Part shown: in pieces, positions 14,931-19,700 of the stretch | Position numbering within the stretch: the first letter of the stretch is position 1 | Layout of the letters: the number at the start of each line of letters is the position of its first letter | Source of the DNA: a virus | Reading direction: 5' to 3' (one strand) | DNA: 19,700 nucleotides | UHGV virus genome: UHGV-1796434 | Notes under the pieces: generated by a model | Told to the model about the DNA's origin: nothing | The model's input: the letters and a program-made list of their open reading frames with translations, nothing else | Databases searched by the model: none | Program-made: the position numbers and the translations under genes

Positions 14931-16664
14931 TTAAAGCGAGCGGATCCCGTAGGACTCAATGTGATCAGACAGCGTGTCTTCTTTCTCGTACAGCATGGCT
15001 CTGCCAACCGCCATAATCAGCGCAACTGCACCATCGATTTTGTTTTCCGCCTGCTCCTTGACGGGCTTCACCACATCATCGTTACCCGGAATGGTTTTGC
15101 CGACCACGTTGCCGATACACCAGGTCATGATGGGATTGCCGTCATGATGAAAGCGCCCCGATTCAATCGCCGCTTCCAGCTCTTTCATCGGATCGGACAT
15201 GTTGGTGTAGTTCTGAATGATGGTGACGGGGTTCAGGTCTTCATCAGCAAGGTCATGTGACAGCCCGGTCGCCCCGAAGGGGTCGATGGGTGACTCACTG
15301 ACCGGGCTGATTTTGTTCGCCGCTTTGGCCTCTTCGAGGATGTAGCGATAATCCACCTCCGCACCATCGGTAACGGTCAGAACGCCCATTTCCACCCATT
15401 TCTGAAAGCGTTCGGCTGTCCGGCGATCTTCATTTTTCTCGACGCTGTACACCGTGTCATACGGTACCCAGAAACGCGGGGCCACACTGTAGTAATGCGT
15501 TTTACCGTCAATCTCGCGGGTATAAAGTCGCGCCATGCTGTTCATATCCAGCTTACGCGCCAGGTCAAAGGCCAGAATGCACGGCTGCCCCTCGAACTGC
15601 TCAAGGGTCAGTGATTTATCCTCGCAGCTCTGCCAGCTCACCAGGTTGAAATACGCCGAACGCGCCGACACCCAGATATTGAGGTGTTTTGTTTTAAAGA
15701 CGTTTGCCAGACGGGCGTTATTTTTCGCACGCTGCTGCTGACTTAACAAAAATTCGCGATAAACCGACACGCCAATATTTGGATTGGCTTTTTCCAGCAC
15801 CTGCGGGTCGGTCCAGTCGTCACCTTCATCAACGGTATAGATGATCCCGAACAGTTCATCGTTTGGCACCGAGCCGTTGAGCATCTCGATGACTTCCCGC
15901 CGTTTGTCGTAGCACGGCCCCTCAATGTTGTACCCGGCGGTGGTAATGGCCCACATCAGTGGCTGGCGTCGCGCCCCCATCCCGGTAAGCATCGTGGTGT
16001 AAAGCGCATCTGTGGCGTGCTCGTGATATTCATCCACCACGGCACAGTGGGGTGATGAACCATCACCGGGGTTACCGATCAGCGGTTCAAACCGCGCACC
16101 ATCCTCCGGACGGTTCATGTTTGAGGCGTTAACCTCAATCCCGAACGCTTCCGTCAGCATGGGTGTGCGTTTACACATCAGTCGCGCCGGGCGAAAGACT
16201 TCCCACGCCTGTTTCTCTGTCGTGGCACCGGAATACACTTCCGCGCCGAACTCGTTATCACAGGCAAAACAATACAGGGCAACACCGGCAGAGATTGCCG
16301 ATTTGCCGTTCTTACGGGGAATTTCGGTATACACCTCCCGGAAGCGGCGCAACCGGGTGCCTTTATTGACCCAGCCAAACGCACAGCAGATCACAAATAG
16401 CTGCCACGGCTCCAGCGTGATGGGCATCCGTTTAAATGCCCACTCACCCTTGGTGTGCGGCAACAGCTGAATAAATTTGGCGGCCCGTTCAGCCAGGTCC
16501 TTGTCGAAGCGGTAACGAAACGACTTACTTTTTTCCGCCATCAGGTCATCAAGATGGCGCTGGCAGGCCTGAATCACAAACTGGCAGGCAATAATCTTTC
16601 CGCGCACGACATCCCGGGCATACTGATTTGCAGCATTTACGTTGGGGTAAGATTTCCGGCTCAT
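14931..16664 (-). CDS. Terminase large subunit
   Basis: 577 aa track ORF; ATG at 16662-16664 overlapping the small-subunit stop (ATGA). Contains a P-loop-like PRKNGKS segment; length and position typical. Confidence 0.85.
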
Positions 16665-17155
16665 GATTCGATAATTTTCAGAAACGGGTTAGTGGCTTTC
16701 TTCTTCCCCGCCAGGCCAATCAGACGCTGGCGGCTGCTGGGGTCGAGTCCGAGCATTGCCCCCGTACTGCTCATCTCGGACTCCTGTTCTTTTTTGGCGG
16801 TCAGCTCCGGATTTTTGACCATACCGCCCATTGCACCGGTGATGGTGTTGCCCTGTCTGGCAATATTTTTCACGGCACGTCGCCAGAACTCGTAGGCCAC
16901 GCACCACCGCTCAAGCACCGCGAGGTCAGTCACGCACAGCAGGCCCTGACCGCAGAGTTCTTTGGTTGTCAGTTGCCACATGATCGTGGCGAGAGGGAGA
17001 TCTTCTTCAGCGAACCACTCCGGTGGCTCAACACCTTTGATGGGCGTAAAAACAGGTTCATCTTTATTCAGGGCTCGCTTGCCGGGGTTTCCGGCCAGCG
17101 CCTTGCGCGCCGTTGGCTTGGGGCGACGCCCGGAACGCCCCGCCGTTCCAGCCAT
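16661..17155 (-). CDS. Terminase small subunit (P27 family)
   Basis: Track ORF starts at GTG 17164; I prefer the ATG at 17153-17155 ([14 protein letters not shown]...), which has AGGAG 8 nt upstream. Family call from memory of P27-type small subunits. Confidence 0.7.
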
Positions 17156-17205
17156 ATGCGGCACTCCTGGTTAAATTTCATTTTTCGCGGGTATAAAAAA
17201 ACGAT

Positions 17206-17254
17206 GGGGCGGGCAGTCCGGAAGACGTCAGGCCGCAGGGATTTGACCCGCCCC
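17206..17254. promoter_or_regulatory. GC-rich inverted repeat in the HNH-terminase intergenic region; candidate cos/terminase recognition region or terminator
   Basis: GGGGCGGG at 17206-17213 and CCCGCCCC at 17247-17254 flank a 33 nt spacer containing GACGTC; on the minus strand the distal arm is followed by a T7 run. Location matches where HK97-like phages place cos. Confidence 0.3.
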
Positions 17255-17280
17255 TCCCCTCAGGCAGTTGAGAATTATTA

Positions 17281-17631
17281 TCACTTCAACCGTTCACGGG
17301 CCGTCTTCGCCTTATGACACGGCCAGCACAGACTCTGCAGATTACAGTCGGCATCAGTGCCGCCATGCGCTTTAGGGATGATGTGGTCAACGGTTTTCGC
17401 CTCGCGCACCACACCAGCACGCAGGCACAACTGGCATAAACCTTTGTCACGTTTCAGCACACGCGTGCGGATAACGTCCCACTTCGAACCGTAGCCGCGC
17501 TGATGACGGGATTGTCCTGGCTTGTATTGCTTCCAGCCTTCGCTTTTGTGGCTTTCGCAATAACCTGACGGGTCAGTGGTGGTATGGCGGCACCCGCGAA
17601 CACGGCAGGCTTTTGGTGTGCGTGGTGGCAT
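17281..17631 (-). CDS. HNH endonuclease (terminase-associated)
   Basis: 116 aa track ORF; ATG at 17629-17631 with AAGGA SD. N-terminal Cys cluster (CRVRGC...C) and C-terminal HNH motif (DHIIPKAHGG...N...LCWPCH). Sits immediately upstream of the terminase genes, as in HK97-like phages. Confidence 0.8.
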   Translation of the reverse strand: MPPRTPKACRVRGCRHTTTDPSGYCESHKSEGWKQYKPGQSRHQRGYGSKWDVIRTRVLKRDKGLCQLCLRAGVVREAKTVDHIIPKAHGGTDADCNLQSLCWPCHKAKTARERLK

Positions 17632-17765: not shown

Positions 17766-18167
17766 TTAGCCAATTAAGTCGTCAATTTTTTTCTGAATAT
17801 AACCATCCAGCAAACGCCTTGAAACGTCAACTAATGTTCCAATGCTTGCATCTTTAAAGCCGGTCTTGAGAGAATTCCAAACCTCTTTATTCCTGAGAGC
17901 TTCAAGGAAGTCATGACCGCTTGAAGTTAATCGTAACGGTATAACGAACCATGATCCTCCATCAGCAGCCTCAGAGAAACCAAACCCATACTTGCCGTCT
18001 GTTCTAGCAATTAGTTGACGATCAGCCAATAAACGCATATGGAATAAAAATTCATCGGTGCTGTAGTCATACCCAGCCAGCTGCAGCTGCTTTATATCAG
18101 TATGCGGCTCTTCAGACGCCTCGAAAGCTTCCAAAAGACCTTTCAAATACTCGTGATCTATTTTCAT
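17766..18167 (-). CDS. Hypothetical protein, 133 aa (possibly DUF2513-like)
   Basis: Track ORF with ATG at 18165-18167 and AAGGGAA SD 5 nt upstream; followed by a rho-independent terminator. Lies in AT-rich DNA. DUF2513 resemblance is from memory only. Confidence 0.5.
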   Translation of the reverse strand: MKIDHEYLKGLLEAFEASEEPHTDIKQLQLAGYDYSTDEFLFHMRLLADRQLIARTDGKYGFGFSEAADGGSWFVIPLRLTSSGHDFLEALRNKEVWNSLKTGFKDASIGTLVDVSRRLLDGYIQKKIDDLIG

Positions 18168-18241
18168 AACATTCCCTTTTATGAATGAGGGAATAATTTA
18201 ACATTAAACTAGGCACTTGATGAATACTTGGCGTAATGTCG

Positions 18242-18436
18242 CTAGTGGTCGAGTTGCAATACACCGTGATTCAGTAACTCTAAATAAGCGATGAGCCCGG
18301 CATAAACGGGGATAAACTCACAATCATCTTCGAATTCTGGGATTATTCCGGTTGCGATGGTGTATTGAGGCTGGCTATCTTCCTTCGCGAAGGATGCAAG
18401 GTCTTCAAACTGCTTAGCTGTAAGAACCACTGTCAT
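18242..18436 (-). CDS. Hypothetical small acidic protein, 64 aa
   Basis: Track ORF MTVVLTAKQFEDLASFAKEDSQPQYTIATGIIPEFEDDCEFIPVYAGLIAYLELLNHGVLQLDH, with 11 Asp/Glu against 2 Lys. Start lies directly after the upstream terminator hairpin. No family recognised. Confidence 0.4.
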   Translation of the reverse strand: MTVVLTAKQFEDLASFAKEDSQPQYTIATGIIPEFEDDCEFIPVYAGLIAYLELLNHGVLQLDH

Positions 18437-18448
18437 ACCTCTGTCGTT

Positions 18449-18473
18449 AAAAAGCCTCGCTATTGCGAGGCTT
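18449..18473 (-). terminator. Terminator-like hairpin after the 73 aa gene
   Basis: Minus-strand reading AAGCCTCGC-AATA-GCGAGGCTT followed by TTTAA; the short U-tract runs into the SD and start region of the next ORF, so termination may be partial. Confidence 0.45.
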
Positions 18474-18490
18474 GGTTCGGAAGCTGATTA

Positions 18491-18712
18491 TTACTTGGTG
18501 AAGTGTCTGATAGCCTTCTCAACTTTTTCGTCAGTGACCATACCGTCACAACGTGCGACGTTATAACTTATCCCGTCTAGTTCGTACTCCTCGATAGGCA
18601 TAGTAAGCACGCCGCCCTTGTCACCCCTGAAGGTAACAATCTCCAGGTCGTCCTGGACAACAACATGATCAAACGCGTCACCCGGTAAAATAGCTATGAC
18701 ATTCTTTGGCAT
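18491..18712 (-). CDS. Hypothetical small protein, 73 aa
   Basis: Track ORF is 18491..18760 from a GTG. I prefer the ATG at 18710-18712 (MPKNVIAILPGDAFDHVVVQDD...), preceded by AAGGGG with 6 nt spacing. Followed by a terminator hairpin. Confidence 0.45.
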   Translation of the reverse strand: MPKNVIAILPGDAFDHVVVQDDLEIVTFRGDKGGVLTMPIEEYELDGISYNVARCDGMVTDEKVEKAIRHFTK

Positions 18713-18760
18713 TTTTATCCCCTTTTTTTTGCGGAGGATTAAATTACCACATTCATTCAC

Positions 18761-19006
18761 TTATGAACCAGATTCAGCTTCAAACCACAGTAGTGTGTCT
18801 TCCGACTCTTTGATAGCTTTCGTCGTTCTGGCTACCAGCCCGCTTTCAGATGTTACCCAGCTTAACTGGTTCACAAAGATTTGATACTTCAACGGATCGT
18901 CACCAACAAACTTAATCGCGTCTGCTGCAGCGGCGGTGTCATAGTACAGTTTCGCCAGCAGGTTTAAGCGGATCTGCTATGCAGGTGTAACCGTGATTTT
19001 AGACAT
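18761..19006 (-). pseudogene. Small ORF (about 81 codons) interrupted by an in-frame amber codon at codon 10
   Basis: Hand translation from ATG 19004-19006 (AGGGGA SD 6 nt upstream): MSKITVTPA, then TAG at about 18977-18979, then the frame stays open for 71 codons (QIRLNLLAKLYYDTAAAADAIKFVGDDPLKYQIFVNQLSWVTSESGLVARTTKAIKESEDTLLWFEAESGS) to TAA at 18761-18763. No in-frame ATG downstream of the TAG. Confidence 0.4.
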
Positions 19007-19121
19007 TGTTTATCCCCTGGTGGGTATATTTATTGTCTTATCCGCTTGTTGGGATATCCATTATCAAAGCCACTCTGCAAGGAATGGCTTTTATGATGGC
19101 AATAAAAACAGTCGTAGGAGG

Positions 19122-19370
19122 TTAGATTAAGTCTTCACGTTTTTCATATTCATCGATATGATAAAGATGCATAAACTTTTCATCATGCCCACCAAATATC
19201 TGTGTTATCGATTCGTCATCCCGGCCTTCAACAATTAAATGCTTTTCATGTGTTCCTGGCATAAATAACGCCTTTACAACATATTCTAAGTGGTGTTTGA
19301 ACTGTACGTGAAGCTCTCTTGCATCCTCAAAAGGAATATTTTCGGTAAGTTCAAAATAACGAAATGCCAT
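19122..19370 (-). CDS. Hypothetical small acidic, His-rich protein, 82 aa
   Basis: Track ORF; ATG at 19368-19370 with GGGAGGT SD 4 nt upstream. Product MAFRYFELTENIPFEDARELHVQFKHHLEYVV... has several His residues and is AT-rich in codon usage. No family recognised. Confidence 0.5.
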   Translation of the reverse strand: MAFRYFELTENIPFEDARELHVQFKHHLEYVVKALFMPGTHEKHLIVEGRDDESITQIFGGHDEKFMHLYHIDEYEKREDLI

Positions 19371-19431: not shown

Positions 19432-19700
19432 ATTATTTCAGGTTCCATTAGATATAGCTTTGTAATGAACTGGCACTTATCTCAACACAGCCCTTACCGC
19501 GCGCCAGATGCTCAATATCAAGCATCAGCAATGAGATGTTTAATCTGGATTCGCTCCAGAAGTAAGCACCACCCTGTCTACAGAGCCAGATGTGAAGGAT
19601 GATTGATCCTACCCACGTAATATGGACACAGGCCTAAGCGAGGTTCTTGTTTTCAAATTGTTCCGGACTGAGGCCGCCACACCAACTGTGCCGCCGCCAC

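Follow-up and report, generated by a model that had tools for sequence, protein, structure and literature searches.

Classical amber mutations of phage genes include the 'am' mutants of lambda and T4 and CAG>TAG alleles that are suppressed by supE. The decay pseudogenes of E. coli prophages arise when a point mutation inactivates a gene that lysogeny does not require, and secondary lesions then follow. The gene described here, a disrupted member of the DUF2560 family (Pfam PF10834; PHROG 571) in the window, by which we mean the whole 19,700-nucleotide viral sequence that was analysed (UHGV-1796434), resembles both. It bears the same CAG>TAG lesion as such amber alleles, and supE would in principle restore the wild-type residue; however, its amber codon is of natural origin and has become fixed in prophages of wild, non-laboratory strains. 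The gene is evidently not essential, the prophage has no suppressor tRNA, and supE is absent from E. coli strain 20, in which the allele occurs naturally. As in the decay pseudogenes, a point lesion has inactivated a gene unneeded in lysogeny and a secondary lesion has followed (a stop-loss fusion in strain 2c3), yet the prophage around the gene is not decayed, the late genes that were compared being intact. Set against DUF2560/PHROG 571 itself, a family of small proteins from enterobacterial phages and prophages, the window copy has the same length, start and genomic slot, but carries TAG at the invariant Gln10, together with the replacements E3K, R50W and L74W. The window copy is a pseudogene member of the DUF2560 family, and not a functional one.

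The disrupted gene occupies positions 18761-19006 on the minus strand and comprises 81 codons and a stop. From the ATG at 19006, nine codons (MSKITVTPA) are followed by the premature amber codon TAG (codon 10, 18979-18977), after which 71 sense codons lead to a TAA at 18763-18761; the conceptual product reads MSKITVTPA*QIRLNLL...ESGS. An SD-like AGGGG (19014-19018, minus strand) lies 7 nt upstream of the ancestral ATG, and comparison of the upstream 25-mers showed that the intact relatives have AGAGG at this place. Re-translation thus reproduced exactly the frame given in the initial annotation (ATG with SD, nine codons, TAG, 71 codons, TAA). If codon 10 is taken as Gln, the conceptual protein scores 55.2 bits on the Pfam DUF2560 profile (E=8.4e-15; the gathering cut-off of the family is 25 bits) and also matches phrog_571 at E=4.7e-23. 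The Pfam match covers residues 5-72 (profile positions 2-69 of 72) and hence spans the TAG; it follows that the frame is not open by mere chance. The profile matches, the length of ~80 aa, the conserved Met and the late-operon position all place the window copy in the DUF2560/phrog_571 family, but its frame is interrupted, as it is in 11 of 11 related copies, by TAG at codon 10.

A search of a collection of 5.8 billion proteins returned 33 relatives, from which 25 intact proteins (78-82 aa) were aligned. These originate from Enterobacter, Leclercia, Phytobacter, Salmonella, Escherichia and metagenomes. All 25 share Met1, which aligns with the ATG at 19006 (consensus start MSEITVTPAQQIRLNLL), and in all 25 residue 10 is Gln; residues 3-17 are strongly conserved, and collinearity with the window copy runs from Met1 to the C-terminus. 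The initial annotation had proposed a nonsense mutation in a real gene with an upstream ATG start, and the common Met1 and Gln10 bear this out; a true start downstream of the TAG, which it had named as the finding that would overturn its proposal, is at odds with the upstream Met of every aligned homologue. At the DNA level, codon 10 is a sense codon elsewhere, the point that it had proposed to check: 10 of 10 intact relatives have CAG, with C at base 18979. In eight of these ten (L009 and seven viral contigs) CAG stands in an identical 26-nt context, and the seven contigs encode intact proteins of 81 aa. Residues 1-9 and the 25 nt upstream are likewise conserved between the window copy and its intact relatives. 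Since Gln10 is invariant and the DNA relatives have CAG, the TAG (18977-18979, minus strand) is a single CAG>TAG transition, C>T at 18979. The intact members display pairwise dN/dS values of 0.05-0.23, indicative of purifying selection. A collection of phage genomes contained no near-identical DNA; the protein homologues in it are all distant, come mostly from Klebsiella phages and carry either no annotation or a hypothetical one.

The amber allele is not peculiar to the window. The same 1,051-bp region was found at 99.6-99.9% identity in six complete E. coli chromosomes, all with the TAG, from Hong Kong wastewater, Swiss soil, three water or sediment isolates from the USA, and a Canadian chicken; these six are the only carriers of the prophage lineage among 5,426 complete genomes. 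The TAG is also present in four IMG/VR viral contigs and in the sole matching metagenome contig, from human gut, so that 12 independent sequences carry it (the window and 11 others). Furthermore, shortened annotations of the allele (P0001, P0034, P0035, P0036, P0037 and P0038) occur on about 174 Escherichia contigs. An intact copy of the amber-clade allele, recognisable by K3, W50, D70-T71 and W74, was not found in the 5.8-billion-protein search or among the viral and metagenome contigs. The amber clade is shallow (identity of at least 99.6%), and the TAG is confined to it, all diverged relatives having CAG. After the TAG, the frame is open for 71 codons in every copy; the divergence within the clade is too small for this to carry statistical weight in either direction. 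The TAG is an inherited mutation, fixed in the prophage lineage, and neither an error nor a private recent event. The mutation had been called recent, and this is so only in relative terms, given that an entire prophage lineage, present on several continents and on about 174 contigs, is fixed for the TAG.

The window haplotype has a missense change of its own, N21Y (AAC>TAC; codon 21 TAC, Tyr, 18944-18946, minus strand), where other amber copies have AAC. This haplotype recurs in viral contig L017 and in protein P0034, which is present on 71 contigs.

The genomic setting of the gene can be read from E. coli strain 20, whose prophage is collinear with the window at 97.9% identity over 19.6 kb. 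That prophage is inserted at the tRNA-Thr gene adjoining proA and extends over about 37-38 kb with a complete-looking gene set, in which one other gene is frameshifted. It contains an integrase, a repressor region, a Q antiterminator, a holin-lysozyme-Rz cassette and small ORFs, DUF2560 among them, and continues with an HNH gene, TerS (P27 family), TerL, an HK97-type head and a contractile tail. The window and strain 20 share the order holin, lysozyme, Rz, small ORFs, DUF2560, small ORFs, HNH, TerS, TerL. Of the other late genes compared, namely 27 complete CDSs and the aligned part of a 61-aa ORF, every one has its full length in the window and none has an internal stop; the DUF2560 gene is the only broken one. 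Intact DUF2560 genes occupy the same slot between the lysis genes and the small terminase in three further loci (L008, L010 and L012), where they are associated with unrelated packaging modules. Judging by its position, the gene looks like a conserved late-region accessory gene of the phage rather than host-derived cargo, and the 'cargo' label of the initial annotation is better replaced.

Downstream of the remnant and in the same frame lies a gene of 73 aa (18491-18712, minus strand) with a strong SD of its own, which is intact in the window. Its ATG (18712) stands 48 nt beyond the old DUF2560 stop. This ORF produced no match in Pfam, PHROG, NCBIfam or PADLOC.

Combining these observations, we consider it very probable that a dispensable accessory gene of the phage has here become a fixed nonsense pseudogene, a case of ordinary gene loss. 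The gene belongs to the DUF2560/phrog_571 family, an acidic protein of ~81 aa with a predicted four-helix fold that is encoded in the late operon of lambdoid prophages, between the lysis cassette and the small terminase. A single C>T in the ancestor of the E. coli prophage lineage replaced the CAG (Gln) of codon 10 by TAG; a ribosome that begins at the ATG at 19006 would release a peptide of nine residues, and the gene would be null in ordinary, non-suppressor hosts. As the frame offers no in-frame ATG or SD-preceded start downstream of the TAG, a functional product is presumably not made. The loss would have been tolerated because the gene appears to be dispensable for keeping the prophage, and the next gene would be translated from its own SD. 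Because RNA polymerase modified by Q is resistant to Rho-dependent termination in lambdoid late operons, the terminase and head genes would not be expected to suffer from polarity. Finally, the remnant seems to have begun to drift, with radical replacements at invariant residues and, in one sub-lineage, the loss of its natural stop.

The sequence of the remnant offers some signs of such drift. Thirteen sites separate the amber lineage from every intact relative, six of them synonymous and seven non-synonymous (E3K, Q10*, N19K, R50W, E70D, A71T and L74W), as against 45 synonymous and 16 non-synonymous changes on control branches. When changes on the stem and within the clade are pooled, a Fisher test against these controls yields p=0.008 with stop changes included and p=0.029 with missense changes only; for the stem branch alone the difference is not significant (p=0.17). 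In a leave-one-out test, the amber allele radically breaks three invariant columns (E3K, R50W and L74W), while comparably diverged intact sequences break none to two. The gene had been described as otherwise intact; this holds for the frame but not for the residues, since these three replacements fall at positions that are invariant in the intact homologues. Taken together, the evidence for relaxed constraint on the remnant after its inactivation, drawn from sequence comparison, is moderate and not decisive.

Variants that segregate within the amber clade (N21Y, D36E, T52I and *82Y in the remnant) were also considered as evidence of decay, and this was rejected on the basis of a control: in the same clade, the intact neighbour genes show an equal non-synonymous excess (8N:2S) at a density similar to that in the remnant. 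These polymorphisms lie in neighbouring ORFs of 82, 73, 64 and 133 aa (17766-19370). Such a ratio may reflect either weak constraint in the prophage state or variants too young to have been purged.

One sub-lineage, represented by strain 2c3 and viral contig L019 (loci L002 and L019), has departed further from the ancestral gene. Here, the natural stop has changed from TAA to TAC (18763-18761), and two additional changes are found, a G>A at 19017 in the SD region and a C>T in the intergenic spacer (18737). The TAA>TAC change joins the remnant in frame to the downstream 73-aa ORF, and PGAP calls the resulting fusion a 'DUF2560 family protein' of 141 aa.

With respect to what the intact protein may do, a confident AlphaFold2 model of the closest intact homologue (pLDDT 90.9, pTM 0.80) comprises four helices (residues 8-19, 24-34, 38-50 and 57-79), with Gln10 within the first. 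With a pI of about 4.6-4.9 the DUF2560 product is acidic; its GRAVY is about 0, and no hydrophobic segment stands out. A Foldseek search against the PDB gave no informative neighbour (best E=2.1), and a structural search of BFVD retrieved only uncharacterised phage proteins of DUF2560's own family. Neither the DUF2560 product nor four small neighbour proteins matched PADLOC or NCBIfam, and there was no relevant Pfam match. The suggestion in the initial annotation that the product might be an antitoxin or immunity partner of a neighbour gains nothing from these searches, in which no defence, toxin or antitoxin family was matched by the gene or its neighbours. In the literature, the term 'DUF2560' was found in just two papers, both times outside the title and the abstract. 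Frameshifted or shortened DUF2560 copies have arisen independently in other lineages, which is consistent with a dispensable gene.

The loss could also have been adaptive. The knockout might have been selected, for example, if the protein is costly or toxic when its expression is leaky, or if it triggers an abortive-infection or other defence sensor of the host. Such selection would explain why the amber form is the sole form of the allele found, in a prophage that is otherwise intact and looks functional; the broken allele is, moreover, geographically widespread, the rest of the late region is intact, and the gene has been disrupted independently elsewhere. However, all of this is equally accounted for by a neutral knockout that hitch-hikes on a successful prophage. 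The lineage is, besides, a rare one (6 of 5,426 complete genomes), and the searches revealed no defence-related or toxin signature and pointed to no function for the family. Adaptive loss therefore seems to us improbable, albeit the best placed of the alternatives; if true, it would provide the first functional handle on a widespread and uncharacterised family of phage proteins.

A shortened but functional protein, initiated beyond the TAG, is rather less credible still. It has in its favour the RefSeq CDS models of 70 aa (from ATC, codon 12, 18973) and 51 aa (from ATT, codon 31, 18916), a frame that is open in all copies, and a TTG at codon 39 (18890-18892, minus strand). The TTG is the first canonical in-frame start past the TAG and opens a 43-aa ORF (18761-18892); it stems from a synonymous CTG>TTG change that only the amber lineage has, and is preceded by a GGT(G) motif, a weak SD, from which a short C-terminal product could in principle be made. 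On the other hand, ATC and ATT are very weak initiation codons and neither is preceded here by an SD, and the aligned homologues, which begin at the upstream Met, are highly conserved over residues 3-17. The existence of three PGAP models for approximately one sequence points to start placement driven by homology, and not to a real start. The TTG39 is probably a coincidence, being one of several C>T and G>A transitions on the branch. Furthermore, going by the structural model, any restart product would lack at least part of helix 1: a product from ATC12 would lose its beginning, and one from TTG39 would lose helices 1-2 and keep only helices 3-4. Finally, the radical changes at the invariant R50 and L74 fall within the supposed shortened product.

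Nor do we give much credence to a full-length protein made through amber suppression only, or at a low level by leaky termination at UAG-C, a reading that stands marginally below the previous one. A Gln-inserting supE tRNA would restore the exact ancestral residue, and the allele persists in many strains with the downstream frame open. Programmed read-through sites have a conserved stop codon, however, and here the stop is limited to one shallow clade and is not conserved across the diverged homologues, which have CAG. Neither the window nor the prophage has a suppressor tRNA: the window lacks tRNA genes, and the whole prophage has none within or beside it except the thrW of the host, at the attachment site. 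A supE-type tRNA-Gln (CUA anticodon) was detected in 155 of 5,426 complete genomes, and all 60 of these for which records were listed are K-12 laboratory lineages or their derivatives. Strain 20, as a natural host of the allele, has wild-type glnX and glnV, both with CTG anticodons. In addition, invariant residues have been replaced and the natural stop has gone in one sub-lineage. Expression in suppressor hosts only, which the initial annotation had offered as one possibility, is thus unsupported by the tRNA content of the window, the prophage or this one natural host. The possibility of a sequencing or assembly error, raised at the same time, whereby the genome is truly CAG and the TAG a consensus artefact, has a negligible likelihood, since the same TAG is found in 11 other sequences, assembled independently and differing in laboratory, platform, continent and sample type, and since shortened gene calls of the amber allele are found on about 174 contigs.

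The reading as a fixed nonsense pseudogene has consequences chiefly for annotation. RefSeq/PGAP has three CDS models (70, 51 and 141 aa; WP_226234448.1, WP_435366616.1 and WP_489816917.1) for essentially identical DNA. All three begin at a non-canonical ATC or ATT that lacks an SD, and in no case is a pseudogene indicated. The short CDSs with ATC and ATT starts are mis-annotations of a pseudogene, and these artefactual models have seeded clusters of a 'DUF2560 family protein' on about 174 contigs. The locus is a textbook nonsense pseudogene in an accessory gene, of small biological weight, and its main value lies in the correction of such records. It also adds a small datum on the family, namely that DUF2560 would be dispensable for the maintenance of an otherwise intact prophage.

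Several observations on the surrounding region may be added. At its 5' edge, the DUF2560 gene borders on a mosaic junction (19009-19038; loci L007 and L008): four other E. coli prophages match the region of the upstream 82-aa ORF at ~94-95% up to a point 3-32 nt short of the ATG, past which their sequences differ. L008 has, in the same slot and directly before a P22/Sf6-like terminase, a DUF2560 allele that is only 28% identical, and L007 lacks the gene. The end of the window (19604-19700; 97 nt), at the end of the Rz and lysis genes, does not align with the strain 20 prophage, and marks another mosaic boundary, inside the lysis cassette. On the other side of the remnant, the HNH endonuclease gene (17281-17631; region 16661-17631) directly precedes the genes for the small terminase, of the P27 family, and the large terminase, and all three are intact; the order HNH-TerS-TerL is typical of HK97-like cos-packaging phages. 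In the strain 20 prophage, in a part outside the window (L025, 16097-18299), two genes on the opposite strand, encoding a hypothetical protein of 392 aa and a 'nucleoid-associated protein' of 344 aa, sit between the Q antiterminator and the holin. The Q-to-holin interval is the classic moron, or cargo, position in lambdoid phages.
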